From a virus: a stretch of DNA of 64,000 bases. How positions within the stretch are numbered: the first letter of the stretch is position 1; the number at the start of each line of letters is the position of its first letter. The notes under the pieces were generated by a model, which was not told the DNA's origin, made no database searches, and saw only the letters and a program-made list of their open reading frames with translations. Where the stretch lies: positions 90,778 through 154,777 of IMG/VR virus record IMGVR_UViG_3300023174_003623. One strand, written 5' to 3'. Made by a program: the position numbers and the translations under genes. This document shows positions 18,297 to 64,000 of the stretch, piece by piece.

Positions 18297-19238
18297 ATGA
18301 TTCGTGATGAATTTTTGTGGTCTCAGCAATACCGTCCTAAGACTGTATCAGAATGTATTCTTCCTATTAACCTTAAGACAACCTTTCAGGAGTTTGTCGA
18401 TAAGGGCACAATTCCTAATATGCTTCTTACTGGGCGGGCTGGAGTAGGTAAAACTACTGTGGCCCGCGCCATTCTTGATCAATTAGAATGTGATTATATG
18501 GTTATCAATGGATCGATGAACGGTAACATTGATACTCTTCGTGTTGATATAAGTCAGTTTGCTTCTTCTATGTCTTTGATGGGTGGAAGAAAATATGTTA
18601 TTCTTGATGAAGCAGACTATCTAAATCCCAATAGCACTCAGCCTGCTTTGCGAAACTTCATGGAGGAGTTTTCAAGCAACTGTGGATTTATTTTGACTTG
18701 TAATTTTAAGAACAAGATTATTGAGCCGCTGCATAGTCGTTGTACCGTAATTGATTTTAAGATTCCTAATGATGAGAAGTCTAAGTTAGCTTCTCAATTT
18801 ATGAAACGAATTGAGAAAATTCTTGAGGTAGAAAATGTACAGTTCGACCGGCCTGCTATTGCTGAGCTTATTAGTAAGCATTTCCCTGATTGGCGGCGAG
18901 TTCTAAACGAGCTTCAGCGATATTCTGCTACGGGTAAAATCGATAGTGGTATATTGGCTAATATTGGCGATGAAAGCTTTAAGACGCTTTTTGGTCATCT
19001 GAAAGCTAAATCGTTTACCAATATGCGTAAGTGGGTAGGAGAGAATAGTGACATTGAAACTTCGGCATTGTTTCGTCGAATTTATGATAGTGCAGCCCAA
19101 TACATTAAACCAGCATCTATTCCTAGTTTAGTATTGTTGTTGGGTGACTATCAATATAAAGCCGCTTTTGTATCCGATCCTGAAATCAATATTGTAGCGT
19201 GCTTGACTATGATTATGACTGAGTGTGAGTTTATATAA
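18297..19238 (+). CDS. gp44: Clamp loader large subunit
   Basis: YRPKTV, GRAGVGKTT, ILDEAD, LHSRC. Confidence 0.97.
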   Translation: MIRDEFLWSQQYRPKTVSECILPINLKTTFQEFVDKGTIPNMLLTGRAGVGKTTVARAILDQLECDYMVINGSMNGNIDTLRVDISQFASSMSLMGGRKYVILDEADYLNPNSTQPALRNFMEEFSSNCGFILTCNFKNKIIEPLHSRCTVIDFKIPNDEKSKLASQFMKRIEKILEVENVQFDRPAIAELISKHFPDWRRVLNELQRYSATGKIDSGILANIGDESFKTLFGHLKAKSFTNMRKWVGENSDIETSALFRRIYDSAAQYIKPASIPSLVLLLGDYQYKAAFVSDPEINIVACLTMIMTECEFI

Positions 19239-40409: not shown

Positions 40410-40464
40410 TCCTTCTGACGAGTCTTTAATAGACGAAACGGGAAAAGGATGTCCCGTCAAGGAC
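40409..40464 (+). ncRNA. Type I hammerhead ribozyme
   Basis: Stem I GTCCTT/AAGGAC, core CTGACGA, stem II GTCT/AGAC, GAAA, stem III CGGGA/TCCCG, GUC cleavage triplet (after 40458). Confidence 0.92.
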
Positions 40465-40594
40465 ACGCACCGAGACCTTGTGGTGTATCGGTGACGCGGG
40501 GTATAATGGAATTCCCCAGGAAGAATGTAGGCAGATGAAAGAGTCTTGTCGGAGTTGATCGCCCGCCCTCTCCATCTCACATTCTTAAACCGCG
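40465..40594 (+). ncRNA. Candidate structured RNA downstream of the hammerhead
   Basis: CACCGA/TCGGTG hairpin; nested CGCGG/CCGCG, AAGAATGT/ACATTCTT, AGATG/CATCT, AGAG/CTCT. Confidence 0.55.
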
Positions 40595-46400: not shown

Positions 46401-49204
46401 AGATAACATGAAATACTACACCTACTGTGAGCCAACCAGTACCGAGGACATGACACCGCTGTATATCACTCTAAGTGAAGAAGAGATTCTAAAAGAATAT
46501 TGGGACTATTGGTATGGTCGGATGTGCGCCAAGTTTGGTCAAAAGCATGTTGATGCGAACTATAGCACTAAAGAATGTATAGAAGACTGGTGCGTGGTGC
46601 ATTGGGCAGAGGAGAGTGAGTGATGAGTGAGATAATCGACCTTAATAAAGCATTCTTGAAATACTTTAACGAATCAGAAGGATTTTCATTAAGATCTGAA
46701 AGATTCTATGATGATGTTAGGTCGATTCTAACAAATCCAGCGTTATCCTCGGCAAGTAGAAATAAACTGATGCGTGGTTGGCTTGAGGCTGCATTCATTC
46801 AAGGTGCAAGGACTATGGCACAGGATACTCTAGACACGCTTGGTGATTATGCCACAGCTGTTGCTGGAATTGATGAAAAAGTATATAATAGATCTGAAGC
46901 ATTTGATGCTGCTAGAGATAATCTTATGACATACTTCACACAGGTACTAAACGGAGAAACAGAATGAATGCAGAAGAAGACCTTAAAAAACTAAGGCGAT
47001 TATTAAAAGAGTTCTTTCAGATGCTGGATAGTACAGAAGAGAGCGACAGCGGAAGAATCTTTAAACCAATCCAAATATCTAGTTGTCGCGCTTTGATGAT
47101 CAAACCTTTAAATAAATTGTTGAACGATCTTAGAAAAGAAGCAATGAGGGAGATTGAAGAATGAGCCCTGAACTAGATAAACGACTATGCGAAGACTTTC
47201 CTAAAATCTTTGCACAAAGAAACGGATCGCCTAAAGAAACTGCATTTGCATTTGGTTTCGAATGCGGTGATGGGTGGTACGATATTATATCCACACTATG
47301 TGCTGTGATTCAGAATCAAATTAAGTATACTCCTGATATTCCTGAAGTCGTTGCTCTTCAGGTCAAAGAAAAATATGGAACACTTAGATTTTATATCTAT
47401 GGTGGTAATGACTATACTGATGGAATGATTGCAATGGCTGAATCTATGAGCGCAAAGATCTGTGAACTCTGCGGTAACAAAGGCAAGGTCATTGAAGATA
47501 ATGGTTGGTTGAAGACTCGGTGTAACACTTGCCATCGTGTTGAAGAGGTTGGACAAGAATAAAGTTGTTTACTTATTTTAATTTATAGATTATAATTGAC
47601 TTATAAATTGAAACGAGGATCTTACGATGTACACTACAAAAGTTACTTGGCTCGGCACCGAATATGGTTGCCGAGTGTTCAAGGACGGTGAACTGATCCT
47701 TGAAGGATGGGCTTCTTCTCGGGAGCTTATTGGTGCAACTTTCCGCGATTTGCTCCGCACCATTGACAAGTGCGGTGAGGGCGACAGCTTTACTTCTGCT
47801 GCTCGTCATCGTAATAGCAAAGAAGGAAATCTTTGCATCGGTGTGAAACACATTTGGCATTAAGGAGGAAGAAATGAATGACCGAATTCTAGAATTGGCT
47901 GTACGGGCTGAGTTATATGTTGATTGGAATGGAAGACCGTATCCTCGGGCAATGAGTGCTGAGGAATGCAGGGCAGCCTATGCAAAGTTTGCTGAACTCA
48001 TTATCGCTGATACACGCGAGGCTTGTGCTAAGATTTGCGATTCTTATGCTGAAAACCAGAAATCTTGGTCTACCGGAGAAGATAGTGCTGAAGAATATCG
48101 AGAGCAAGCGGCAAATGAACTCGCCGATACAATCCGTGAAAGTTGGAATATATGAGACCACAAGAAATCAATCGTAACATTGATTTAGCTTTCAAACGGT
48201 TTGCTCGTGATGGCAATCTAATTCATTTTCAGAAGTGTAAGAATCATCTGGAAAAACGATTAGAATGGTTTCGTAAGACTGAACCAGAATTAGATTTTGG
48301 TTTTACAAATTATATGTATTGTTTTAAAGATGAGTATAACGAAGAAGACATAAAGCATCATTTAAGTTATATCTCTGACCGATGGAATTGCCCCGGTCGC
48401 ATTAACTTTATGCTTGAAGTGATTAACCGAGGAATTTGATATGAAAGATGATATTGTAAGTCTTATAGGTTTTCTAGGTGGCATAGTAGTTACTGTTTGT
48501 TTGCTTATTGCACTTTGCCCGGATTCATTCACGCAAGCAGAAGATGCCCTAAAACAATGTGAAAAATCTTTACCTAGAGATCAAAAATGTATGATAATTG
48601 CAATTCCAGAGGATAAAAAGTGAAAAAGATTAAATCAGAATTGACGCTCGAAGAAGCATGGGGCATGAACGGGCTGATGGCAACTTCCGCTTTTCGTTAC
48701 TGCCTCGGGCGAATGACTTACATCGTTGGCGAATGTGCTGATTGGCTTATCGCTAACTGGGATAAGTTTCCGCCTAGTGTCAGGTCTCTTATTGAACGAG
48801 AACTTGAAGAAGAATTTGGAAATGATGACAGGGAACGGATGCACAATCCACAAGGCATGTGGAAGCCTCTCGGGCACGATTGCGACCGCAAAGAATGGGA
48901 ACGAGTAAGAAAGCTTTGGAATAAAAAAGAAGACTATGATGATGAAACCACAGGATGTTGATGAGCTTATGTCTGCTTTCATTCGATATGAGAAAGCACT
49001 GACTCATCTTCCTTTTGAATCTCTTTTAACAAGAGAAGAGATGGAAGAAGCTGAACTAATAATGCAACAACAGTTTGCATACGAAGAATAGACCACTACC
49101 ACACTTCCCCCCAGATGTCAATAGAAAAGAATTTCTTTTTACCTGTTGACATCTTTTTTTGATTCTGTATAATGCCTCTCATCGAAACGAAACAGGAGAT
49201 GGAA

Positions 49205-50053
49205 ATGCCTAAAGGTGTATACGAACGTAAGCCGCGCATTAAGAAAGACGACTTTGCGACTCCCCGTATGTCAATGGTTGTCACTGAGACTGATGACCAG
49301 ATTGACACTCGCCTTCGTAGCCGGTTTCGCACTGTTGGTATCATGGCGAAGTCTGCATGTGATGGTATTACTCGCTCTTTGATTGTCTCTGGGCCTCCGG
49401 GTCTTGGCAAGTCTTTCACGGTCGAGAAGATTGTGTCAGACTACGATAAGAGTGGTAAGAAGGCTGTCATCTGCAAGGGTTATGTGCGTCCTACTGGCTT
49501 GTATAAGACTCTGTACGAATATCGTCATGCTGGCAATGTGATTGTGTTTGACGACTGCGACTCTGCCTTTCAGGATATGGATGCTCTCAATCTTCTGAAG
49601 GCTGCGTGCGATACTACTGAGAAGCGACGCCTGATGTGGGGTGCTGAGACTCGCATGACTGACGCTAACGGTAAACCCATGCCTTGGTCGTTTGATTTTG
49701 AAGGTTCTATCATCTTCATCACCAATTACGACTTCGATGCTGCGATTGCCGCTAACAACAAGTTCAGCGAACACTTCAATGCGCTTATCAGTCGGTCGCA
49801 CTACATTGATACCGGCATGAAGTCGATTCGTGACTATCTGGTGCGAATTCAGCAAGTGGTCGATGAAGGCATGTTGGACGATATGGGGTTGACGGCATAC
49901 CAGCAGCGTGATATCATTGACTTCGTGTTCGACAACGCACCTAAGTTTCGAGAGCTTACGTTGCGTATGGTAATCAAGCTCGCAGGGTTGTACAATATCA
50001 GCCGTACCGAGTGGAAGACGATGGCTTCTGTTACTCTGTTCAAGAAAATCTAA
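49205..50053 (+). CDS. AAA-type P-loop ATPase
   Basis: SGPPGLGKS, VIVFDDCD, IIFITN; promoter TTGACA-N16-TATAAT at 49146. Confidence 0.85.
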   Translation: MPKGVYERKPRIKKDDFATPRMSMVVTETDDQIDTRLRSRFRTVGIMAKSACDGITRSLIVSGPPGLGKSFTVEKIVSDYDKSGKKAVICKGYVRPTGLYKTLYEYRHAGNVIVFDDCDSAFQDMDALNLLKAACDTTEKRRLMWGAETRMTDANGKPMPWSFDFEGSIIFITNYDFDAAIAANNKFSEHFNALISRSHYIDTGMKSIRDYLVRIQQVVDEGMLDDMGLTAYQQRDIIDFVFDNAPKFRELTLRMVIKLAGLYNISRTEWKTMASVTLFKKI

Positions 50054-50067
50054 ACTGGAGACTTATA

Positions 50068-50427
50068 ATGATTGACTACATTGTGACTTTTACCGACAAC
50101 CACCTTAAGAACATTGCCAAGGGTCTGTTGAGTTATAACGGTATTGAGGCGTCTGATTTGCGAAAGCTTAAGACGACCAAAACGAAAGTCGTCGAGGCTA
50201 TTGTCGCTGACCCTGAGTTCAAACAGTCTTTACTTAAGACTCTTAATGATCATCTGGCTTTTAGCAATCTTTATGATTGTTTTCCGTTTGAAGATGATAT
50301 GTACGATATTGCTATCATCAAAGATATTTGTGACGCACTTCAAGTTAAGAACCAAGAAGCTAACAGGAAGCGTATGATTGAAGACGCCCGTGAGTTGTTG
50401 ATTGAGAACGGGTATACGGTTTCTTAA
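50068..50427 (+). CDS. Hypothetical protein
   Basis: GGAG RBS. Confidence 0.6.
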   Translation: MIDYIVTFTDNHLKNIAKGLLSYNGIEASDLRKLKTTKTKVVEAIVADPEFKQSLLKTLNDHLAFSNLYDCFPFEDDMYDIAIIKDICDALQVKNQEANRKRMIEDARELLIENGYTVS

Positions 50428-50669
50428 CTGTTACCAAGAGCTGCCACACGACTTGTCTTTTTAAGAATGTCTCTCACTACACCGGGAGACACTTTATTGT
50501 GGTGTGGCAGTTCTACTCTTTCTTCTGGTGCGTCTGGGTGTTTATAGATAGCATGGTCGCCTGTGTCTCTATGCTTCACCCAGCCATTCTGTCGTAAGTG
50601 TGACTCAACATCACGACGTTTGTCCATCGTGATTTTAATTTCTTGAATGTATTGAAGAAAAGTTATCAT
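50424..50669 (-). CDS. hicA: HicA-family mRNA interferase with capsid-targeting-like N-terminus
   Basis: LRQNGW...TGDHAIYKHP...LPHH...SPGVVRDILK; MITFLQYIQE; CATAAATA upstream on minus strand (50691-50698). Confidence 0.82.
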   Translation of the reverse strand: MITFLQYIQEIKITMDKRRDVESHLRQNGWVKHRDTGDHAIYKHPDAPEERVELPHHNKVSPGVVRDILKKTSRVAALGNS

Positions 50670-50755
50670 AAAAGAGTTCCTGTTTTTTTGTATTTATGTG
50701 TTGACAGGCTTAAACCCGTCCTGTATACTACCTTCACTAACTGAGGAGAAACACT

Positions 50756-51013
50756 ATGACCGTGAATCGTGAAGAACTGATTAACCTGCTCAAGAAGACT
50801 GAAGTTATCGTCGCTTTCACTAAGGCTGACGGCACTGAACGAGAACTGCACTGTACGCTTCAATCACACTTACTTCCTGTTCGCGAAGTAGTGGAAGGCG
50901 AAGTCAAGAAGGAGCGCAAGGTTAATGAGTCTGTCATTGCCGCCTTCGACCTTCAGAAGATGGAATGGCGCTCTTTCCGTATCGATTCTGTAAAGTACTA
51001 CCATAAGCTTTAA
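50756..51013 (+). CDS. WYL_2 / DUF2693-like Sm-fold protein
   Basis: FTKADGTERELHCTL, FDLQKMEWRSFR; promoter TTGACA-N17-TATACT at 50701. Confidence 0.8.
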   Translation: MTVNREELINLLKKTEVIVAFTKADGTERELHCTLQSHLLPVREVVEGEVKKERKVNESVIAAFDLQKMEWRSFRIDSVKYYHKL

Positions 51014-51992
51014 GGAGCGTATGATGAAACTGCAACTGACGATTGGTACATGCACTGTCAACACTACCTTCAAAGGACTAAGCAAAGTCTTTAATGAAGA
51101 AGATGCTAGGATTTTTGAAAATATGTTGACTGTGGGTAGTTCACTTCAAAACGGAGTGACAATCAGTCAAACTATTGACGGTGTAGATTACAGCATTCGT
51201 CTTATCAAATAAATATCGGGTGCCCGTAAAGAGTACGGGTTAAATGCGAGCGACATTCCAGCCCCCCCTTTTCCAAACAACACTTGACAAACCATGAAAC
51301 TTTCTTATATAGAAACTTTAATTCTTCTTGCTATCATTCTGTTGGGACTTAGGTTATACTCCCAATCAGACTGTGATAGCAAAGGTGGCGTGTTGTATCA
51401 ATGGCAATGCGTTCAGGTCAATCTTATCAAATAAAGTGGTTGACACTCCATACCAGTCCTGTATAATGTCTCTCATCGAAACGAAGGAGTAGATTATGAT
51501 TGTCAGTGCCAAGATTGCTGGGTTTCAGTTTGAGACTGTGCTTGACTTGTTCTTTCTGGACAATCCGAAATGGGCTGACAGTAAAGAATTCATCGAACGT
51601 GAACTGCGTATTTATGGTGAAGCTGTATGTTGGCGCAGTCCTGACTTTGACGTGAAATGCGTCCTTACTCTTATTAAGGAATAAAACAATGAAAGGTATT
51701 GAACTCCTATTCTCTGATAGGAACGGTATTTACATTCCTAAGATGTATGCAGAAATGGTAAACGACTTTCTGTATCTTTGGGAAAGTGTTAGTCGAGAAG
51801 ATATCGACTTACTTCTCAAAGGCCCAGAAGAAGAGTCTTACTGGGATGTGTGGAACGATGTTGTGCAGTGGGCTAGATATACTGATGAAGAAGGTAAAGT
51901 CTGGCGTCTACATCAGGATGGCGACTTGTTTGCCTACTGCGACGAGCGTATGAGTGATGAAGAGTATTTCAACTTTTGGGGAGAAAATCGGG

Positions 51993-52343
51993 ATGAGTGA
52001 ACTAACTTTTATTGAACATGATTTTATTGTTGGATTTAACAATATGCAGGCAAGCGTACACCAGACTGGTCGAGACAAGGGCTGGTGGGACACAAACCGT
52101 TCTGATGGTGAATGTATCGCTCTGATTCATTCTGAACTGTCAGAGGCTTTAGAGGCTTTACGTCATGATAATCCGTCTGACGATAAGATTCCAATGTTTA
52201 CTGGTGCAGAGGCTGAACTGGCTGATACCGTGATTCGCATCATGGACTTGGCACAGCAACGTGGATGGGATGTTGCGGGTGCGATTGTTGAGAAGGCCAA
52301 ATACAACAAGACTCGCCCTATTCGTCACGGTAAGAAGTTTTAA
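51993..52343 (+). CDS. MazG-like nucleotide pyrophosphatase
   Basis: LIHSELSEALEA, ELADTVIRIMD, KAKYNKTR. Confidence 0.85.
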   Translation: MSELTFIEHDFIVGFNNMQASVHQTGRDKGWWDTNRSDGECIALIHSELSEALEALRHDNPSDDKIPMFTGAEAELADTVIRIMDLAQQRGWDVAGAIVEKAKYNKTRPIRHGKKF

Positions 52344-52719
52344 CTATTGACAATCCTTGTATCATAGTTCATACTGCACTCATCAACACAGGAGACGCTA
52401 TATGATTTTTAACTACGCTGGTTATGTCTATGATACTTGGGTTGACTACGAAGAAGACAACCGCAAGATATTCCATGAAGTGCTTAAAGATGGTAACTTT
52501 GTCAAGAGTATCGACTTTACTCCCTATCGACGCATGACTTTGAAGGACTTCATCAATTATATTGACTTGGGGTTGCCTTCTCGAATCAACAAAGGCCCAT
52601 TGACAAGTGAAGATTTGCAGTATCTTAAAGACACTGCTACTTTTTGTGAAGGCCATTCTTTTACTTGACAATCCCTGTATCATAGTTCATAATGCCCATC
52701 ATCTTAAGGGAGAGCAGAA

Positions 52720-52866
52720 ATGAAAGCTGAAAAGATTGTGATTGCAGTTGCCCATCGTCCTATGCGTGCCGTCGAACTCTACGCTCACGGCACTCCTTTC
52801 CGCCACAAAACCCAACGCGACCGTACCAAGTATAACCGTAAACCCAAACACAAAGGAGACTTCTAA
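52720..52866 (+). CDS. 48-aa basic protein resembling ArfA core (not in ORF track)
   Basis: PFRHKTQRDRTKYNRKPKH; own promoter at 52665 and GGGAG RBS. Confidence 0.6.
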   Translation: MKAEKIVIAVAHRPMRAVELYAHGTPFRHKTQRDRTKYNRKPKHKGDF

Positions 52867-53947
52867 TGGGCTACTTTAGCCAGATTGTTGTTGAAGTTGA
52901 AGAAATGTATATGCAAGGTTTCTCTAAAACTCGTATTGCAGAAATTCTAAATCTGCCGTATGATACTGTGGAATCCTATCTGTCTAACTTTGAGGAAACT
53001 TCTGATGACTAAAGACTGGGATGCACCGACAGACTTATCGCCTTTAGGTCTTGCTGCTGTTTCTGTTTTTAAGACTGTTGCTAAAAAGAAGAAAACGACT
53101 TATAGTGGTTCAAAGGTATTCTATAGCCCAAAAGAATGGGCTGACCGTGGAGAATCTTTTGGTTTGAATTCTGAGCTTATCATTCAGTATGATGGCAGTC
53201 CAGATGTTCGTTTTCTTGCTGCGCTTAGTCATGATGTGGCTGGCGCTTTACTTATGCATGGATTGTATGTAGAATCTTGCACTGGTTGGTATTCTGCTGT
53301 CTATAAGATTTAACGGAGGCTCTATGATGCACTACCGCGAAGACTTTACGCCTGAAGAACTCAAACAGTTTAAGGCTGAACTCGATGCTTTGGATGCTGC
53401 ATATCAGGCTATGGCGAAGGCTGACCGTGAAGCTGAGTCTGAATGGTTAGCTAACGCTTCGCCTGATGATATCGAGGCTGCAATGGAAGAAGCCGAGTAT
53501 AACGACTTTCTTTACTCTTTACCGCGATAGGAGAACACAATGAACTTCGACCGAGTAACAGCAGAACTAGCATATGATTTACTTCAAAGAGGAGTATGGA
53601 CATCAGCCGAGTTCCGAGCATGGAATATCTTCAAGCTAAAAGAAGCAATAAACAAAACAGATTCAACCGTCCGTCACTTCATGTATGGAATAAGATACCA
53701 AGAAGGTGACTACTCACGCCTTACCCGTCTGGTGTTCTTCGACATGCGTGAGGCTCAAGACCGTATCGATAAATGGAATCATCTCTTAGTTAAAGAAGGT
53801 ATGTCTGGCCGACATGTATTAGAGACTCTGATTCTCGTGGATCCAGAGAATGATTGGAATTTTCTAAAAAAAATTTCTGTGTAAAGTGTTGACATTCTTT
53901 TATGTTTCTGTATAATGCCACTTCTTCTTTAAGAAAGGAAAAACACC

Positions 53948-54406
53948 ATGGGCCTTGATATGTACATGACTGCTCGCCGCCATTTGTCTACCTATGATAC
54001 GAACGAAACCTTGCAGACTGCTCGCACTGCATTGGCTGAAGTGATGCAGCAACTCGATGCGCCTGTCGATAGCGCAGTGAATGATGTTACAGTTGAAGTG
54101 GCATATTGGCGTAAGGCAAACGCTATTCATAACTGGATGGTGGCTAACGTCCAGAATGGCAACGATGACTGCCGTGAGTATTATTTCTCACCAGCAGCCA
54201 TGCAGGAGCTTCTTAACGTGTGTGAGGCTGTTCTGGAAAACATTGGAGAGGCTGGAGAACTGTTGCCTCCGACCAGTGGATTCTTTTTTGGTTCGACGGA
54301 TATTGACGAGTATTATTTGCGCGAAGTCAAGTATACTCGTGACCGCTTGACTGAATGTCTGAAGTGTGGTACTGAATGGAGTTTTTATTATTCTTCATCT
54401 TGGTGA
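53948..54406 (+). CDS. Conserved phage hypothetical protein
   Basis: MGLDMY, YWRKANAIHNW, GFFFGST, YYSSSW. Confidence 0.8.
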   Translation: MGLDMYMTARRHLSTYDTNETLQTARTALAEVMQQLDAPVDSAVNDVTVEVAYWRKANAIHNWMVANVQNGNDDCREYYFSPAAMQELLNVCEAVLENIGEAGELLPPTSGFFFGSTDIDEYYLREVKYTRDRLTECLKCGTEWSFYYSSSW

Positions 54407-55451
54407 TAAAAAGTAGTTGACACCCAGTACCAGCCCTATATAATGCACTCATCGAAACGAACTGGAGAGAACATCATGAAGGCTGACTACTCTGTCGTTG
54501 AAGCTCGCCGCTGGATTCACACTGATGGTCGCACTGCTTCCTTTCACGGTGCGGTGCCTTACTTTGGTGTGAACGATGGCTGGACTGTTGCAATCGTAGG
54601 CTACACTGTGTACAATGCGAAGTCTAACACCTACGGTTGCGGTCGTCCTCCCTTCAAGACCGTTTCTGAGGCTCAGGCGTGGATTGAATCTTTGGCTGCT
54701 TAAGGAGTATACTATGAATGGTTTTGAACTTGTGAACTCTATAGACGAGGTGATGGTTTCTTTAAACAAACCCTACCATGAACGAACTGGGTTTCTTATG
54801 GGGCTGATGGGGATTATGATGAATGAGATGAAACACCACAACCCTGAAGCCTATGCTATGGCTGAGAAGTATATCGAACAGGCTGTGGCTGGTTTAATTA
54901 TTCGCGAACAGGGGAAACTGAATGATGCCGTCACCGCCGCCTAAAATCTTTGGTATGGAAGCAGATACTCTTGCTATTGTGTTTGCTTTTGCTGCAAATG
55001 TTTTGTTGATTGTTCCCACATTCTTTCCGTTGTACACACTTTAAGAGGCTGTTATGAACGATATCGAACCTACCATGACTGAAAACAACAATCCGATTAG
55101 TGATGACTTGACAGAAGCTGAATTGCAGATGCTTCGCGGCCTAAATGCAAGAGGTTATGCTGTTGCTGTATTTACTGCTATTGAAGTTGGTGATGCTGAC
55201 TATCTGGACGTTGAAGATGCTATGATTGAAGCGGGCTGGAACGTCATTTTTAACGAAGAAAGGACTCGCGAATAATGAATACCTATCTGGCTTACTACAA
55301 TCGAAAGACCGTGACTATTCACGCAGAAACTTCATACGAAGCACAGAAGAAAGCCGCCTTTTACTTCAAAGCGAAGAAGGCTTATAAGGTTGCTGTGATA
55401 CTAGTAATGGATTTAAATGGTGAAGTAGTACACGATACTGCTTCGCTATAA

Positions 55452-55701
55452 CCGAACGTGTCGATTAGCCATCGACTAGTGTGCGCCCGCACGATGAGAA
55501 GCCGTGTCGCAGCGGCTGGGCCTTACTCTTAGGTAGCGAAGAGCGGTGGCACCCGATAGTGTTCTGTGGCCGAGAAGAGGATGGTAGGATTGAGTGATGG
55601 TAGTTAGCTGATGGTATCGAAGGGCAGGCCAGCCAGACCCCGGAACCAGATGATGCGAAACTACTTGACAATCTATAGAACCTCCGCACAGAACAAGCAC
55701 T
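55452..55701 (+). ncRNA. Candidate ~250-nt structured RNA
   Basis: GC-rich interval with no convincing ORF; several hairpins plus a long nested helix. Confidence 0.55.
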
Positions 55702-56530
55702 TTCTTTTCAAAATAATTGTTGACACCCAGTACCACTCCCGTATAATGCACTCATCAAAACGAACTGAGGCAATCATATGAAAAAGTTTCTTCTCGACGG
55801 TAAAGAAGTCAATAGGAACGATTATTACAAGGTTGTGGTTGGTAGCAATTCTTCCCCCGCTACGTTTGAATTCCCCTGCCGAGGCTATTCTTTGGAGTCT
55901 GAAATGAAATTCCAGAGCAGCCTGAAACACTTTTCTTTTTTTGTTGAAAAGATTGACGAGAACGAGTACAATACACTTCGTAACGGTGCTGCTAACTAAG
56001 AGGACTTCACGATGATGAACGAATTCGGCTGCTATGACCCCTACTATGACCTGACCGACTCTGAATTGAAAGAACTGAATGAATGGTTCGATTCGGTTGA
56101 CACTCCCCCCGAATTGTGCCAGACTATCGTTGTTGACTTTGTTGACTTTGACCCCAACGAAGACCTTCCGTTTTAAGGAGAATCAAATGGACTACTATCC
56201 TGACCCTGACTCTGCTTACGAAGACCAGTTTCATTCTGAAGACGCCGAATACTACGATACTGAAGAAGTGTACGGTGATGAATACGATGATGAAGACTAT
56301 CGCTTTTTCGGGGAGTTTGAATAATGCAAAAGAATTACGAGTCCTACATCAGCACCAGTCAAGGCATGTGGCGGGTTATACATCAGGGACTGCCAATGTG
56401 TAAAGACTTTCCTGACCGTTCTTCGCCTGATAAAGAAGCGAAACGACTCAGGCTAGACTTGTCGCATGGCTTTCGTTGGGATGGTGATATTGGTGACTGG
56501 GTAGTTGACAGCCCAGTCTGATTATGCTAA

Positions 56531-56604
56531 AGCTGGATGGCAGAGTGGTTATGCGCGGGCCTGCAAAGCCTTATATGTCGGTTCGATTCCGATTCCAGCT
56601 TCCA
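56531..56604 (+). tRNA. tRNA-Cys(GCA)
   Basis: AGCTGGA/TCCAGCT acceptor, CT-GCA-AA loop, GGTTCGATTCC, encoded CCA. Confidence 0.92.
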
Positions 56605-57343
56605 ATCAAAAAGTAGTTGACACTCAGCACCAGACCCGTATAATGCACTCATCGAAACGAACTGGAGAGAACATCATGGGCACCTATGTTTACACTCGCC
56701 GCGCTGAGACCAAGACCATTGCTGGCGTCACCATTGGCCGCTTTGCCTTTGCCTACAAGTACAGCCGATTCGATGGTTGGTATCCGGGCGGCAAGAATCG
56801 CACTGTCCGTATCATGGAGTCTTTTGCTGCTAAGGCCGCTGAAAAGACTCCCAATGTCGAGTTCTTTGTTATTGGTGACTTCGAGCGTGCTGCCGCTTGC
56901 AATTCTCTGGTTTATCAGATGCCTAAAGACGTTGAGTATTTTGTCGAAGAACCGACTGGCGCGGAGGTTGTCGGTACTCTTCGCAAGGTTGGTCGTAAGT
57001 TTGTCCTGTCAACTCTAATTTAAGGAGAAAGTTATGCGAACTGGCTACAATGCTTTTAATTCTACCTACGTTTTTCACTCTATGGCTGCTGGTCATGTGA
57101 TGAACTGCTACGATGATGATGGTTCTTATTATCGTAGCGAACCCAGCAACGCCGAGGAAATTTACAACTCGAACTGGGACAATTCAATGACTTCGTTCTC
57201 GCCCACTTGCCACTATCGCTTTTCTGATGGAAGTGTGGTAGAAGTCGGCTATTCGGGTGCATGGGAAATTCCTGATTAAAGTAGTTGACACTCAGTACCA
57301 GTCCCGTATAATGCACTCATCGAAACGAAGTGAGGAACTGCTA

Positions 57344-57859
57344 ATGACTCTGCTCGATACCCGCAAAGCTGAAGTGGTCGCGAAACTTGACGTATTGGTA
57401 AAGCAGGCGCAGGCTCTCTGGCCCAAGGCTCAGGGGCTGACCTACACGGTTCGCTTCGACCTTCGCGGTGCTGCTGCTGGTACTGCTCGTGTTCGCGACG
57501 GCATCTACACTCTGCGCTTTAACGTCGATATGATGCAGAACGAGGCTTGGCAGCACCTCATCAACGACACCGTGCCGCATGAACTGGCCCACATTATGGG
57601 TTACCATCTGGGCTACGGCATGAATCACGGCAAGGCATGGCGGTCTATCTGCATTCGCCTTGGCGGCACTGGCAAACGCTGCCATAATGAGTCTGTGACC
57701 TACGCTAAGGGCGCTACGTTCGAGTACACGACTTCGACCGGTCGTAAGGTGATTCTCAGCCAGATTCGCCACAATCGCGTCCAGATTGGCGAGAGCGTCT
57801 ACCGCTGGCGTGACGGGTCTAAAATCGACCGTGCCTGCTCTTTCAAAAAGGTTGCTTAA
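57344..57859 (+). CDS. SprT-like zinc metalloprotease
   Basis: TVPHELAH, HGKAW, RCH. Confidence 0.88.
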   Translation: MTLLDTRKAEVVAKLDVLVKQAQALWPKAQGLTYTVRFDLRGAAAGTARVRDGIYTLRFNVDMMQNEAWQHLINDTVPHELAHIMGYHLGYGMNHGKAWRSICIRLGGTGKRCHNESVTYAKGATFEYTTSTGRKVILSQIRHNRVQIGESVYRWRDGSKIDRACSFKKVA

Positions 57860-57931
57860 ACCGCTTGACGACCATCCGGGGAGTGTGAGACAATACTCCC
57901 CGTTGACCCCTTACCACTCTGGAGGCTTTTC

Positions 57932-60900
57932 ATGAAAACTCTTCGCGATATCAACAAAGCTCTGAAACCGCATAACGTCAGGCTTAACAAGGGTAGTTGC
58001 TACATGTACATGACTTACGATACCAATGTGTCGTTTGAATCCAAAAGCTTCTATGGCAGTCATTTCGCCAGCCTTTCGCCTGAGCGTTGGGTGGAAGAGG
58101 GGATTGACTTTGCTGATAGGTGTTTCCTTAAAGTTAGGGAGAATGACTAATGAACGCATTTGCTGAAGAACTCTATCAACAGGAACTGATTGACAGACGC
58201 TGCGAAGTGCTTGAGAATAGGCTTCGAGACCTGAAGAAGTCGATACAGTCTCTGCCGCCTAATGGAATGGAAATTCTGATTGAAATGAAGCAGTTACATA
58301 ACGAACTGCTAGAACTCTATAGTCGAGTCTAAAGGAGAACAATATGCGTAAAAGCAAAATGACCAAGCTTATCATCAAAGCCGGAGAACTGGCTAGCAAG
58401 TATAACGACGCTGAACTCGACCGCATTCTTGAAGATGCTCTACTTCACTTCTCTGAACTTGATGCCCTTGTTTATGGTATTGAGCTTGAACTTGAGAAGT
58501 ATACCGAAAGTGAAGACGCCGATTGTGGGTATGAGTGCTCGATTTAGAAAGGAGAACGATATGCTGAATATCAATCACACTGTTCGCGCTTACACTGGTA
58601 AAAGGGGATGCATGTGCGGCTGCCTTGGTCAGTACAAGGATAGTGAGCGCGTTCGTAAGCTTGCAATCACTCAGCTTCTCAAAGACCCTGACGTTGAGTT
58701 TGATACTTGGGCCGAGGAAGGTTGCCTTTCGGTGACCACTGCAACTCGTACCCGTGTCCTTTACCTGAACAGTGAAGGGGTTGACATCGTGCGTAAGATG
58801 GGTATTCGAGAGAATCAAGTCTACGGATAAAGTAGTTGACGACCATCCGGGGAGTAGGTTACACTGCTCCCCGTTGACCCCTTACCACTCTGGAGGCTTT
58901 CATGTTTATTGCCATTTGCCTTCTCGCCGCTTTTGCCGTTGCCTGTGGCGTGTATATCATGGTCGAACTGGAAAAACAATATAAAATCGAGCGGGAAAAC
59001 ATTCACGGTGATGATTGTTAAACCGCTTGACGCACTGCTCGAACTAGGCTACACTGCTCCCCGTTGTCCGATTCATCATCTGGAGGCTCTCATGGCTAAA
59101 GTTTACGTCACCACTCAGAACTACGAGAACTACGCTTGGAACGAAGACGGTTCGCTCGGCACTGGCGTCGATGCGTACTGGAAGGCGAAGGGCGGCTCGG
59201 ACTACTTTATCACCATTCCCGTTGGCACTCGCTGGGAGAACATGGGCGACGTTGCCAAGGCTCTCGTGGAGGCTCACCGTCAGGATATTGAGTGCGATAA
59301 CGATGCCTTTCGGTCGAACATTATCGGCTGGGAAATTGTTGACGACCACTACTTGACAGACTACGAACAGTCACAACTGCGCTACGAAGGCTACATTCAG
59401 TTCTCTACCACAGTGCTTGCTTAAACTGCTTGACGACCATCCGGGGAGTAGGTTACACTGCTCCCCGTTGACCCACTCACCACTCTGGAGGCTTTTCATG
59501 AAGTACCGCGCAATCGTTAATGGCGTTTCGTTCTACACCACTACCCGTGCGATTCAGAACGGGGTTGGCGACTTCACTAAAATCAACGACGCCCTTCGCA
59601 TGGCAATGGTCGAGTTGGATAAGCTTGCTAAAGACGGCGCGATTGGTTTCGCTGGCACTTGGAACGGTTGCCAGATTCAGCTTACCAAAATTCCAAAGGC
59701 TGCATAAACCGCTTGACGACCATCCGGGGAGTAGGTTACACTGCTCCCCGTTGACCCACTCACCACTCTGGAGGTTCTGCATGGAAATCGACTTCAACCG
59801 TAAGTCCCTTGACACCTTGCTGCAAGTGTTCACCGCTGGCCCTTTTGGCCCTTGCCTTGCCTTTCGCTCCTACTACCAGATTCCTGTAAACGAAGCCATT
59901 GTTACTGAAGACGTTGAGAACTTCGCCATGGCTTTCATGACTGCCGCTAATCGCGTCTATCCGGAGACTTTTTAACGATGAAACTACGCTCTGATTTTAA
60001 GACCGAAAAAGCGTATCTGAAGTACCTTGACGCCCAGCTAAAGTATTGGGCAGACACTCAAAAAGAGCACGACGAGGCTCAGGCTGACCTCGCTCGTCGC
60101 CGTGAACTTGACAATCACTATCAGGCTGTCGAACGCCGAAACGATGAATGGTTTCGCTGGTATATGAAAAACGTCAACGGAAAGTAGTTGACAACCCGCA
60201 CCAGTGCTGCGATACTGCACTCCGTTGACCCACTACCACTCTGGAGGCTCTCATGGAACTGTTCAGCAAAGTCAAAGGCTATGCGACCCGTGATGGTGCG
60301 ATTAAGAAGCTGGCAAAGGAACTGCCAGACTACCACAATTACCGCTGGATGATTGTCTCGCTGCCGTCTGGCCGCTTCTCGCCTGCGGTCAGAACTGTCG
60401 GCACTGATATCTGCGGCGCTCTGGCTCATCGGGACGTTGGCGAATTCTAAACCGCTTGCAAGCTTGCCGGGAGTAGGTTACACTGCTCCCCGTTGACCCA
60501 CTACCACTCTGGAGGCTCTGCATGAAAAAGTCCAAACCCGTCTTCGAAGTCACCATGCGTTCGCCCAAGGCTGGCGAGTACTTCAACTCCCGCCTGACCC
60601 GTCGCGACGTTTCCAGCCGCCTGTACTCTGCTGCCGACGTTCGCCTTGTTCAGAACCTTATCGACTCGCTCGACAAGGGCACGACCGTCGCTAGCATCAC
60701 GGTTGCCGACGACACCTACTCCGTTCGCTTGGTCGCCTAACCTACTGAATTTCGGAGGATTTAGCATGAACTTCGCCCAGCACCCCGTGACCCGCCTGTT
60801 CTGGAATGGTAAGACTTTCGCGGCGACTTTCGCGACTGCCACTCCCCTGACCCGTGACGCTGCCCGCTTCCTTGCGTGGCTGCACAATGCCCTGACCATC

Positions 60901-61131
60901 ACCGTCACGATTGACGGCTAAACGGAGGCCTATACGATGAACGACACCCAACTGTCTACTGCTCTGCTGACCCGCCGCCTCGACAACCTGAAGGCTGAGG
61001 CGGCAATGTACCCAGCCCTGAAGTTCTGGGCTTCTATCGGGCGGCTGCAAATCGATGCAGTGTACGTCCAGCTTGATGAATTGCACGGCGAAACTACTGC
61101 CGAGGCTCTGGCCGCCCGCGCAGGCTATTAA
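57932..61131 (+). other. Cassette ORFs of unknown function (57932-58150, 58150-58332, 58344-58547, 58561-58830, 58902-59021, 59092-59424, 59498-59707, 59781-59975, 59978-60187, 60253-60450, 60522-60740, 60766-60921, 60937-61131)
   Basis: Starts defined by the GGAG(G) RBS within or after each repeat. Confidence 0.75.
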
Positions 61132-61200
61132 CCGCTTGCAAGGTTCGCGGGAGTGTGAGACAATACTCCCCGTTGACCCCTTACCACTCTGGAGTACGCC

Positions 61201-62118
61201 ATGACCAACCGCACCGATGCTCACCGCCCGTCTGCCCTCGTCGCGACCGACTACGAATTCGTGGAGTTCTGCTCGGCCCGCGAATTCGAGGTCTACGACC
61301 TCGCCCCCCGTGGAGAGGCTGGCGGCTACTTTAAGCACCAGAAGATGACCGGCGGCACTTGGTACGCTGGCGGCGAGCAGTTCTGCCGCTGCGATATCTG
61401 TGGCACGACCCGCGCTCTGGACTTCGCCATTTTTTGGCATAAGCCCAGCAACGTGTACGTTCGCACGGGCGGCGACTGCGCGACTCGAGTGTGCGACTTG
61501 CTCGAAGTCGAAGGCTTTCAGGCTTTCCGCGACGCCGCCCGTGCCAAGTCGGTGCGCCTTGCTGGCGAAGCCGTCGCCGAGGCTGCTCTGGCTGCGAAAG
61601 GCATCGACCTCGACTTCGCTGCACTGCGTCAGGCCTCCCGCGAGCTTCACGGCATCAAGACCGGCGGCACTCCCCGCGAGCAGTGGACTGTCTCTACCGC
61701 TCTGGATATCGCTGGCAAGTTCGCCAAGTACGGCAACATGTCCGAAAAGCAGGAAAAGTTTCTCGTGAGCCTGCTGGACTCCGTTGCCCGTCGCGACGAA
61801 GTCCGCGCCCTGTGGGCTGCTCGTCACGCTGAGCGCGTCGCGACTAGCATGCACCTCGGCACGGTTGGTGACCGCATCGAACTCACCGTGACCGTCAAGT
61901 TCGCCAATTCCTACGAGTCCAATTTCGGCCAGTTCTGGATTGTCGGACTCGAAGACGCCTCTGCCAACACCGTGATTTACAAGGGGAATTCGCCCTTCAG
62001 CACGACCAAGGGCGAGGTCGTCAAACTCAAGGCGACGGTGAAAGAACACGGCGAACGCAATGGCGTCAAGCAGACCGTGATTGCCCGTCCGAAAGTGCTG
62101 GAAGTCGCCGCCGCTTAA
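61201..62118 (+). CDS. Protein with N-terminal Cys motifs and probable C-terminal OB-fold
   Basis: CRCDICG...GGDC; GTVGDRIELTVTV...LKATVKEH...QTVIARPK. Confidence 0.65.
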   Translation: MTNRTDAHRPSALVATDYEFVEFCSAREFEVYDLAPRGEAGGYFKHQKMTGGTWYAGGEQFCRCDICGTTRALDFAIFWHKPSNVYVRTGGDCATRVCDLLEVEGFQAFRDAARAKSVRLAGEAVAEAALAAKGIDLDFAALRQASRELHGIKTGGTPREQWTVSTALDIAGKFAKYGNMSEKQEKFLVSLLDSVARRDEVRALWAARHAERVATSMHLGTVGDRIELTVTVKFANSYESNFGQFWIVGLEDASANTVIYKGNSPFSTTKGEVVKLKATVKEHGERNGVKQTVIARPKVLEVAAA

Positions 62119-62191
62119 ACCGTTTGCAAGGTTCAAAATAGGGGAGTAAACTGCTCCCCGTTGACCCCTTAACACTCTGGAGTACGCGCAA

Positions 62192-62707
62192 ATGACGACC
62201 ACCACCTTCGACCTCGCCGTTGCCATTGAAAACATGAACACCGCTATCGACTCTGCCGCCCGCTGCGCCCGTGAAGCCCTTGAATCGACTCTGGCTTTCA
62301 GCGACCGCACTTTTAGCACCGCAGTCCGCGCCGAACAGCTCATCTCGATAACCGCTAACTTGCGCGGTGCTGCTGAACAGGCCGAAACCAATCCCGTAAA
62401 GGCTGCTGAACTCGCCTTTCTTAGCACCGCTCGCGCCACTGATATCGCCGACTTGGTTGAAGGTATTGTCGGCGTTGAAGGTGACGTAGTGGACACCGCG
62501 CAGAATTGCTTTGAAGTCGCCACTGCCGCTCAGGGGATTGCCTACGCTGCCCAAAAAGTATGGGAAGTTGCTGATGCTGTCGCCGCTGAAGGTGAGTCCG
62601 ACGCCGACTTCTCGAAGGTTGTTGCATATCGACGCGACTTTGCAACTTGCCTGCGCCGCGCCTCAACTGCTCGCCACAACCTTTATCTGATATCCCGCGA
62701 CCTCTAA
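62192..62707 (+). CDS. Ala-rich helical hypothetical protein
   Basis: Last cassette ORF, followed by a terminator. Confidence 0.7.
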   Translation: MTTTTFDLAVAIENMNTAIDSAARCAREALESTLAFSDRTFSTAVRAEQLISITANLRGAAEQAETNPVKAAELAFLSTARATDIADLVEGIVGVEGDVVDTAQNCFEVATAAQGIAYAAQKVWEVADAVAAEGESDADFSKVVAYRRDFATCLRRASTARHNLYLISRDL

Positions 62708-62726
62708 TTCCCCCCACTCCCCTCAC

Positions 62727-62757
62727 AAGCCTGCCCTAACCCGGCAGGCTTTTTTTT
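62727..62757 (+). terminator. Intrinsic terminator closing the cassette array
   Basis: AAGCCTGCC/GGCAGGCTT stem plus T8. Confidence 0.9.
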
Positions 62758-62804
62758 GTCTGTCTTTTCAATGCCTTACACCAATAACCCTGCATTTCGG
62801 CACC

Positions 62805-63138
62805 TTTCACCACTCTAGACCCTGCTCAATCATATTACTTTCAAGCCTTTTTTCGTAAGCCATTGATTTCATTATACTTTATCATTTAACTGGTACTTTG
62901 ATGACACTTGTAACTATCTGATTCATAAGGACTTTTTTTATCAACTTTCCCTATAGACTGATTAAAACCCTAGCCGCTCATTCTCGCCTTTCACTCACTC
63001 GCCTGCTCGTTTTCTCGGATTTCACCACTCTAGACCCTGCTCGCCGATATTACTTTCAAGCCTTTTTTACTAAGTGTCTGTTTTTCATGCTGTTTTTCTT
63101 TTAACTGGTACTTTGATGACATTCGCAAGTGTCTGATT
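62805..63138. repeat. ~120-bp imperfect direct repeat (62805-62923, 63020-63138) with IHF-like sites
   Basis: 215-bp offset; TAAGCCATTGATT at 62856 matches YAANNNNTTGATW. Confidence 0.75.
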
Positions 63139-63293
63139 TTATTACGCTTTTTCGGTTGCTCTGCTGCTCTGCCCGTTGTCTGGCATGCTTTCAGGGGAAT
63201 GCTCGCAGGCACCTCGCAGGCTTACGTTAACGTCAGGGTCGAACTATGGGGAAACCTAGCAAATGCCTGTCAGACGCTTGCAGGGGTTTAGGG

Positions 63294-63818
63294 CGCATAC
63301 CACACAAACACCTCAAAAGTCAAGCATTATTTTCTGCCAGACGCTCAAATGCTCGTTTATATCATGTTTTTTAGGGCCAGTCAACCACTTTTGCTCGACG
63401 CTCAAATGCTCGCTTATAACACACCTCGCAGGGCTTGTCAAACGCTCGACGCTTAACCTATACGTCAACTTTCAATCCCTCGACGCTCGACGCTTGACAT
63501 TTACGTTAAGGTCAACTTTGAAACGCTTGACGCTTGACGCTTGACGCTTGACGCTTGACGCTTGACGCTTGACGCTTGCCTCTAACACACATTGCAGCAC
63601 ATGTCAAGCCCCCCCATGCAGAACAGCGCATATACCACAACACGCGAGAACATGCAAGCACCTGCCAGACACCGCAAAGGCCAGCGCATACCACACAAGC
63701 CAGCACATGTCAAGCACTGCGAGAAACATGCAAAACACCTGCACATACCACATTACGAGCAGCATGTCAAGCACCTGTGAGACACCTCCCAATACCACAA
63801 AAGCACATCACATGTCAA
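63294..63818 (-). promoter_or_regulatory. Array of eight leftward sigma70-like elements
   Basis: TTGACA/TTGACT/TTGCAT-N17/18-TAxxxx with TG extension. Confidence 0.65.
63524..63578 (+). repeat. Heptamer tandem repeat (CGCTTGA)7 plus partial copy
   Basis: Directly visible. Confidence 0.95.
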
Positions 63819-63841
63819 GCAATATATTTTCGCGCAGGGTA

Positions 63842-63871
63842 TTGACAGGGGTGGGCTGGGCATGCTATACT
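63842..63871 (+). promoter_or_regulatory. Rightward sigma70-like promoter followed by a G11 tract
   Basis: TTGACA-N18-TATACT; G run 63875-63885. Confidence 0.65.
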
Positions 63872-64000
63872 ATCGGGGGGGGGGGTACTTAAAAGTTTTT
63901 GCAGTTTTCGATCTGGTTCCATGGCGGCTAGCATCCCACCCCTATAAGCACCGTAGAAAAAGATTGCCATGGGTCTCAAAAAAATTCGCCAGTAAAAAAA

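Follow-up and report, generated by a model that had tools for sequence, protein, structure and literature searches.

The window analysed here is the final 64 kb (64,000 nucleotides) of the 154,777-bp IMG/VR virus record IMGVR_UViG_3300023174_003623 (positions 90,778 to 154,777). It raises the question of what kind of repeat interrupts a run of small genes between 57,857 and 62,194, whether the genes between its copies are exchanged as cassettes, and what the hairpin that most copies carry over the -10 box is for. An earlier note on this DNA had read the locus as a gene-cassette array, either shuffled in an integron-like manner or built as a device in which hairpins insulate or process each cassette, and had mentioned the promoter early stem-loops (PeSLs) of T4-type phages as background only. 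That interpretation is partly supported: its architecture and its match with phage RB49 make the array itself a PeSL array and not a new device. It would lie in the early, hyperplastic part of the genome of a T4-like myovirus that is uncultivated, a reading to which we assign a probability of about 0.8. The record is classed as linear and ~81% complete, and encodes a tail sheath protein, a portal protein, a gp23-type capsid protein, a gp43-type polymerase and a gp46-like nuclease subunit of T4 type together with a DnaB-type helicase. The capsid protein is 64–68% identical to those of T4-like phages of Stenotrophomonas, Methylophilales, Pelagibacter and Sinorhizobium, and a megablast of 57–63 kb against cultured phages gave no match, hence no close cultured relative at the DNA level; the source is a distant uncultivated freshwater (lake) T4-like myovirus. 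Between ~49 and 62.7 kb lie 40 small open reading frames (ORFs); the genes there are all small, on the + strand and nearly all without family assignment, an arrangement typical of a hyperplastic early region. No paralogues were found among the cassette ORFs.

A repeat search followed by alignment recovered a single family of nine copies, at 57857, 58828, 59019, 59422, 59705, 60185, 60448, 61129 and 62116, just where the earlier note had placed its nine related elements (Table 1). Each element is 71–79 bp long and spans the stop codon of one ORF to the Shine-Dalgarno (SD) sequence and ATG of the next, with intergenic distances of 65–73 nt. All nine carry sigma70-type -35 boxes (TTGACG, TTGACA or TTGCAA) and -10 boxes (TACACT, GACAAT, GATACT or TAAACT) at a spacing of 17–18 nt, PeSL promoters having spacers of 16–18 nt; the hexamers match the consensus at 9–10 of 12 positions and are predicted promoters. 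The region from 49 to 64 kb holds 46 promoter-like sites against 17.0 ± 4.7 in shuffles. A second promoter family lies upstream of the array, from 49146 to 57285 (TTGACA-16-TATAAT, leader CATCGAAACGAA), and has no hairpin. Elements 58828 and 60185 are hybrids of the hairpin family and this neighbouring hairpin-less family. Within the window the two -35 types (TTGACGACC or TTGCAAG) and the two hairpin alleles (a or b) occur in all four combinations, and exchange between copies is therefore required. If a slash stands for a repeat element, T for a terminator, a prime for a homologue and X for an ORF without a homologue in the window, the gene order of the window reads SprT / 57932, 58150, 58344, 58561 / 58902 / 59092 / 59498 / 59781, 59978 / 60253 / 60522, 60766, 60937 / 61201 / 62192, terminator. 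Rfam returned no family in the array even at E <= 1. A reading of CCGCTTGA as a MotA box was rejected, the motif being ~20 nt from the -10 and thus too far, and Pfam searches for AsiA, MotA and RegB gave no match either in the record or in the control genomes, which makes them uninformative.

The hairpin is present in seven of the nine window copies, including those at 60448 and 61129, for which the earlier note had listed none. It has 8–10 bp and a GGGG(A)G/C(T)CCCC core, and encloses or overlaps the -10. The copy at 59019 has indeed lost it, the left arm being gone (fold of -7.8 kcal/mol, z +2.05), and at 62116 the left arm has moved as described, lying 5 nt closer with TTGCAA-N17-TAAACT intact. 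The AGTGC/GCACT stem proposed at 60185 had to be abandoned: it comprises 5 bp, does not appear when the whole element is folded at minimum free energy, and has not been retained in the orthologues of two relatives described below (L160 and L161). For 42-nt windows with the hairpins, the fold energies range from -16 to -21 kcal/mol, the regional mean being -7.6 (standard deviation 4.05; 1st percentile -19.2). Among 26 elements from four lineages, 21 carry a hairpin. G-T pairs favour the sense strand, which folds more stably than its complement in all but one of 19 distinct sequences with a hairpin, and no perfect stem of at least 8 bp exists on the minus strand at the hairpin sites. The span between first G and last C ranges over 17 to 24 nt and the loops measure 3, 6 or 8 nt, which fits a stem in nucleic acid and not a fixed site for a protein. 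The discriminator lies under the right arm, which stops ~7–8 nt past the -10, at about the expected transcription start, and because of this position the stem would form only in RNA arriving from upstream.

PeSLs were described by Arbiol et al. (2010; PMC2839356) as an ordered series of upstream stop codon, AT-rich stretch, sigma70 boxes, stem-loop, SD and start codon, in which the stem-loop is frequently polyG/polyC (GGGG...CCCC) with G-T pairs and is most often positioned between -35 and -10 or over the -10. In the same work promoter activity was demonstrated, the 211/210 stem strongly cut downstream expression and excised mini-circles were detected; the concept was later extended to the phage pairs PST/T4 and nt-1/KVP40 (Comeau et al., 2014; PMC4122927). 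In the RB49 sequence, PeSL193/192, 205/204, 199/198 and 186/185 have stems over the -10. That of PeSL193/192 (GGGAGTGTC-GCTAA-GATACTCCC) is almost allele b of the window, and that of PeSL205/204 (GGAGTA-GTAAGA-TACTCC) almost allele a, while the 211/210 stem, the one tested as a terminator, has no T-run, as in the window stems. The reversed window, used as control, gave no match to a profile built from 11 RB49 PeSLs, which in the window itself picks out six copies of the hairpin-less family (E 8e-8 to 9e-4). The hairpin-less family (window 54408-54478) and RB49 PeSL194/193 (L165) have the exact 16-mer CGAAACGAACTGGAGA in common, as well as the upstream part AAAAAGT.GTTGACA; in T4-like phages so distant from each other, such agreement points to homology or to a strong constraint common to both. 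Pattern scans of IMG/VR for the elements gave no match with a 30-nt pattern and only single chance matches with a 14-mer; the leader of the hairpin-less family gave four single matches.

The cassette reading of the earlier note was examined by searching for gain, loss and reordering with breakpoints in the repeats, and it held. In the relatives, which are contigs of several lake metagenome samples gathered by metagenome pattern scan, protein search and identity look-ups, the repeated promoter units border cassettes, gene content differs by whole units and copies exchange segments. In L155, with coding sequence ~95% identical to the window, an extra two-ORF unit of 577 bp lies between two identical 58-nt copies of the hairpin-less promoter where the window has one copy, the last of that family (57276..57346). 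The hairpin alleles of L155 are swapped, a at element 1 (b in the window) and b at element 5 (a in the window); two leaders are swapped as well, the leader of element 1 differs from that of the window, the leader of element 2 is swapped past GTTGACCC in both L155 and L161, and in element 3 the 19 nt between two CACTGCTC repeats are deleted. The elements of L155 differ from those of the window at 20.3% of positions and the genes at 5.0%, these positions not being independent. The map of L161 reads ..58561 / 59781', X40, 59978' / 60522, 60766, 60937 / X63, 61201' T; a run of three cassettes is missing, as are those at 60253 and 62192, with the edges in elements. That of L160 is 59092', X76 / 59781', X40, 59978' / 60522', 60766' / 60253' / 61201' / X74, 62192' T, with the 60253 cassette transposed behind 60522/60766, a b/a hybrid hairpin with a mismatched top pair, and nine of its 11 synteny-block ends in or at elements. 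In L162 (/ 60522', 60766' / 61201') the 65-aa (60253) cassette is missing, as in L161, and the element 8 orthologues of L160, L161 and L162 carry allele a (b in the window). In L157 the SprT cassette is transposed behind 59978', several other cassettes are present, three of the four ORFs of the 57932..58830 cassette are absent, and element 9 is missing with its cassette, as it is in L161. Homology of contig G001 to the SprT gene stops at the stop codon, where element 1 starts. The order of the window is confirmed by L163 (100% identical over 59748-60811) and L164, and L156 to L159, from four samples, agree in gene order among themselves; G003 and L125 were dropped from the order comparison as too distant. 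The crossover points lie before, within and after the hairpin. At 2131-2155 of L155, between two genes, a 25-nt piece is identical to the spacer of element 59019, and element 3 of L155 itself is without it; the piece was left behind by an element or by an illegitimate exchange.

A PeSL array would work as follows. Each element would act as a host sigma70-type early promoter followed by a fixed leader and an SD, and would drive between one and four small accessory ORFs. Being direct repeats of nearly the same sequence, the elements could let phage homologous recombination (UvsX, gp46/47-type) exchange, delete, insert and transpose units of promoter plus ORFs, so that relatives would come to differ by whole cassettes, and the same recombination may convert one element copy into another. 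We infer this route from the absence of a tyrosine recombinase in the record and from the recombination of hairpin-less repeats; it fits better than an integron-like mechanism because no integrase was found and the breakpoints are scattered. The G4/C4 hairpin, placed over the -10 and the discriminator, would be present only in transcripts arriving from upstream and would attenuate the read-through RNA or give it a 3' end, each cassette then being expressed mainly from its own promoter. We infer promoter activity, the start site and a role of the hairpin at the RNA level; judging from the RB49 experiment and the sense-strand bias, attenuation or 3'-end formation is the most likely role of the stem. 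A read-through RNA hairpin that insulates each cassette, which was one of the devices suggested earlier, is the published PeSL function and fits the sense-strand bias.

Several observations weigh against this reading. The relatives are all short-read metagenome assemblies, in which 75-bp repeats could cause mis-joins, although two of the gene orders have the support of independent contigs. In L155 an extra ORF of 115 bp is flanked by no repeat, and neither the indel of a 40-aa ORF at 59975/59976 nor the loss of the 60937 ORF is bounded by repeats on both sides. The hairpin family has just 8 nt between stop codon and -35 (TAAACCGC or AAAGTAG, where RB49 has TAAAAAGTTG) and seems to lack the AT-rich stretch that precedes the -35 of RB49/phi1 PeSLs; the RB49 PeSL profile matched none of its nine elements, but likeness in sequence is no part of the PeSL definition, and the hybrid elements 58828 and 60185 link the family to the one that was matched. 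The hairpins have no U-tract and were not called as intrinsic terminators, although the array is closed by a canonical terminator at 62727-62751, the only + strand stem with a T-run past the array, so that phage or host uses that type; for both reasons the stem is not an ordinary intrinsic terminator. Five of the 26 elements and the entire neighbouring family border cassettes without any hairpin. Finally, the claim that pairing survives sequence change was only weakly supported within the window. One pair is altered on both sides within the window (G-C to T-A), but the covariation score was reached by 76 of 500 shuffles and is not significant. The relatives add further arm variants (the b/a hybrid, AGGGGAG-TAAACT-CTCCCCT, GACAGGGGA-GTACACTA-TCCCCTGTT and GGGGGGGTAG/CTGCTCCCCT) and a closing pair that is either C-G or A-T. 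Among 12 distinct long-loop variants from the four lineages, 91.7% of cells pair and two pairs change on both sides, with a score reached by 3 of 500 shuffles, a level that related sequences without structure can also attain; a single consensus fold for all 17 distinct hairpins failed, the short-loop variants shifting the register of the left arm. The covariation is weak and the evidence for selection on the stem suggestive but not strong, and what had been called a covarying hairpin is mostly two alleles moving as blocks by exchange between copies, not independent compensatory mutations.

These same data bear on the alternative that the hairpin has no function of its own and that promoter, leader and homology are all that matters. 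The stem could be a passenger of a repeat that gene conversion keeps uniform, or could arise simply because a G-rich spacer stands opposite a C-rich discriminator. Copies identical by descent, the absence of significant covariation in the window, the block-wise movement of two alleles, the mismatched hybrid of L160 and the hairpin-less copies that border cassettes and mediate an indel are all as this alternative would have them. It is nevertheless fairly unlikely, as the four lineages have no fewer than six arm/loop variants (a, b, d, e, f, g), each of which retains 7–11 pairs, the closing pair changes from C-G to A-T and the top pair from G-C to T-A, RB49 has almost identical arms at the same place, and the sense strand is favoured in all but one of the distinct hairpins. 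A further view, which we hold to be improbable, makes the stem the active core of a mobile regulatory element instead of a passive attenuator: in the single-stranded DNA of T4-type recombination-dependent replication the sense strand would fold and either initiate strand exchange or draw it in, so that hairpin promoters would be recombination hot spots by design, and the element family (arms GGGAGTGT/ATACTCCC, leader CGAAACGAACTGGAGA) would move between T4-like lineages as distant as enterobacterial RB49 and the lake phage.

A DNA-level hairpin over the -10, extruded as a cruciform or folded in single-stranded DNA, might likewise serve as target of a structure-specific nuclease, as hot spot of strand exchange or as an off-switch of the promoter upon extrusion. 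The bottom strand can still fold, with energies of -11 to -19 kcal/mol, no sites have changed more between sister strains than the elements with a hairpin, and Arbiol et al. (PMC2839356) speculated that the GGGG...CCCC stem may be the target of a recombination protein; all the same, such a role is quite improbable, given that G-T pairs weaken the bottom strand in 18 of 19 cases, that the repeats flanking the clean 577-bp indel have no hairpin and that crossovers fall on either side of the hairpin as well as inside it. Very unlikely is an operator at which a dimeric phage or host regulator would shut off early promoters: the inverted repeat overlaps the -10 and its GGGG and CCCC cores are invariant, but the core-to-core distance is not constant, the left arm shifts by 5–6 nt relative to the -10, G-T pairs make the half-sites asymmetric and no candidate regulator was identified. 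Integron-like shuffling, with folded single-stranded attC-type sites and a dedicated site-specific recombinase, would explain the cassette-wise gain, loss and reordering and the strand-specific hairpin; this part of the earlier note is not supported and is now highly improbable, as each cassette has its own -35/-10, the breakpoints are scattered, hairpin-less repeats recombine too and include the cleanest indel, and no tyrosine recombinase (PF00589) occurs in the 154.8-kb record whereas 14 of 14 control genomes were positive, although with a record ~81% complete its absence is unproven. The chance that these are N4-type hairpin promoters read by a phage-encoded RNA polymerase is negligible: there is a hairpin at the promoter and the loop of element 9 has 3 nt, but the boxes are near the sigma70 consensus, the loops are mostly of 6–8 nt, the genome is T4-like and the largest ORF of the record has 1527 aa, which leaves no N4-like virion polymerase in the ~81% present.

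Table 1. Features of the array and its borders (window coordinates).
Feature	Position	Strand	Details
Last copy of hairpin-less family	57276..57346	+	precedes SprT-like gene
SprT-like zinc metalloprotease gene	57344-57859	+	Pfam E 4.9e-10
Element 1	57857..57934	+	TAA, -35 TTGACG 57865, -10 GACAAT to 57894, leader, SD, ATG
Element 1 hairpin, allele b	57877-57902	+	GGGGAGTGT/ATACTCCCC plus C-G closing pair, 10 bp
Cassette 1	57932..58830	+	four small function-unassigned ORFs (72, 60, 67, 89 aa)
Element 2	58828..58904	+	upstream part of neighbouring family (AAAGTAGTTGAC); allele a 58848-58873, 10 bp
ORF after element 2	58902-59021	+	39 aa
Element 3	59019..59094	+	promoter retained; CACTGCTC duplicate replaces left arm, no hairpin
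ORF after element 3	59092-59424	+	110 aa
Element 4	59422..59500	+	hairpin allele a 59442-59467, 10 bp
ORF after element 4	59498-59707	+	69 aa
Element 5	59705..59783	+	hairpin allele a 59725-59750, 10 bp
ORFs after element 5	59781-60187	+	64 aa, 69 aa
Element 6	60185..60255	+	hybrid of promoter of hairpin-less type (TTGACA-17-GATACT) and leader of hairpin family; no credible hairpin
ORF after element 6	60253-60450	+	65 aa
Element 7	60448..60524	+	TTGCAA 60456, TACACT 60479-60484, hairpin 60469-60490 (8 bp)
ORFs after element 7	60522-61131	+	72, 51, 64 aa
Element 8	61129..61203	+	TTGCAA 61136, GACAAT 61159-61164, allele b hairpin 61149-61170 (8 bp)
ORF after element 8	61201-62118	+	305 aa
Element 9	62116..62194	+	TTGCAA 62124, N17, TAAACT 62147-62152
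Element 9 hairpin	62141-62159	+	8 bp, loop AAC
ORF after element 9	62192-62707	+	171 aa
Canonical intrinsic terminator closing array	62727..62751	+	9-bp stem + T8

The surroundings of the array show further features. The SprT-like gene behaves as a mobile single-gene cassette and occupies a different slot in L157 and in G001. A tRNA gene (56531-56601) lies within the early cassette array, immediately before a promoter copy, and at 55448-55702 an ORF-free stretch of 255 nt is 84% conserved in both G001 and L157, a level that many of the genes beside it do not reach; Rfam gave no match to it even at E <= 1, and the stretch, lying in a cassette slot, is a candidate non-coding RNA. In G001 (L126/L150) a hammerhead-like core (CTGATGAG...CGAAAC, 18700-18760) adjoins a stretch 83% identical to window 40456-40591, and this homologue is 15 kb from its neighbours in the G001 gene order; by this comparison small non-coding modules are shuffled too. 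The GC content climbs steadily along the early array (window 38000-62700) from ~0.33 to 0.59, and GC at third codon positions (GC3) is as high as 0.77 in the last array genes; cassette GC3 varies widely (0.28–0.77), as expected for genes of mixed origin. The ramp is conserved in L156 and L157, where it runs from 0.42 to 0.57 and then falls to 0.30 past the non-coding region, and a chimeric assembly as the source of the rise was rejected since G001, L156 and L157 rise likewise beside low-GC DNA. That non-coding region, 1.3 kb long in the window (62708-64000), holds a direct repeat of 119 nt, TTGACGC heptamers in tandem and recurring ACATGTCAAGC motifs, is 73–81% identical in L157 and L160, and may be an origin or another cis-acting site. 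Because L157 and L160 continue past its homologue with more genes (methyltransferases, epimerase, dCMP deaminase), the contig end is an assembly break and not the end of the genome. In the 55-kb record G003 (L127/L128), rated 15% complete by CheckV, ~28 near-identical promoters (TTGACAGGGTCTTTG...TATACT/TATAGT) occur within 15 kb where GC is elevated; CAGGG...CCCTG stems stand between the boxes of many of them, and one resembles the RB49 TTGACAGGGGAT..CCCCT type, so that this array is PeSL-like as well.

With this array the range of PeSLs, formerly a few entero- and vibriophages in culture, comes to include a distant, uncultivated lineage of T4-like phages from freshwater, and several lake metagenomes provide population-level evidence that the repeats are sites of accessory gene gain, loss and reordering and that one copy converts another. 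Since hairpin arms and leaders are nearly identical to those of RB49, either strong shared constraint or horizontal spread of the element family is suggested. The elements are of a known kind and reveal no new mechanism.

Among the known systems, the early hairpin promoters of N4 carry short stems closed by loops of 3 nt and serve the virion RNA polymerase. They resemble the window elements in having a small DNA hairpin at the promoter, and differ from them in loop size, in the sigma70 boxes of the window and in the polymerase, of which no N4-like form is found in the part of the genome on record. With integron attC arrays the window shares small cassettes that are separated by imperfect inverted repeats folding better on one strand and that are gained, lost and reordered cassette-wise, whereas integron cassettes depend on one Pc promoter and each window cassette has its own, no integrase was found, and the exchange points are not fixed, homology alone being sufficient. 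The PeSLs and PmSLs of PST/T4 and nt-1/KVP40 are likewise repeats of promoter and stem-loop; they cluster at the places where one member of a close phage pair shows insertions, deletions, replacements or displacements relative to the other, and include degraded 'half' elements comparable to element 3 of L155; their stem-loop, unlike that of the window over the -10, lies just upstream of the promoter and has another consensus, and it is contig G001 (L126) that has their upstream-terminator layout. The PeSLs of RB49/phi1 differ from the window elements in coming from phages very distant from this uncultivated freshwater one, and in that promoter, terminator and mini-circle activities were demonstrated there, those of the window elements being putative. 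The elements of the hairpin family use weaker hexamers (TTGACG/TTGCAA; TACACT/GACAAT) and are GC-rich with a different leader (GTTGACCC..ACCACTCTGGAG). The two kinds agree in the series of stop codon, sigma70 promoter, G4/C4 stem-loop with G-T pairs, SD and ATG, in nearly identical arms (GGGAGTGT/ATACTCCC; GGAGTAG...) over the -10, in cassette indels between flanking copies, in the hyperplastic region of small ORFans of a T4-like genome in which they lie, and, through the hairpin-less family of the window, in the RB49 profile and the 16-mer of PeSL194/193.

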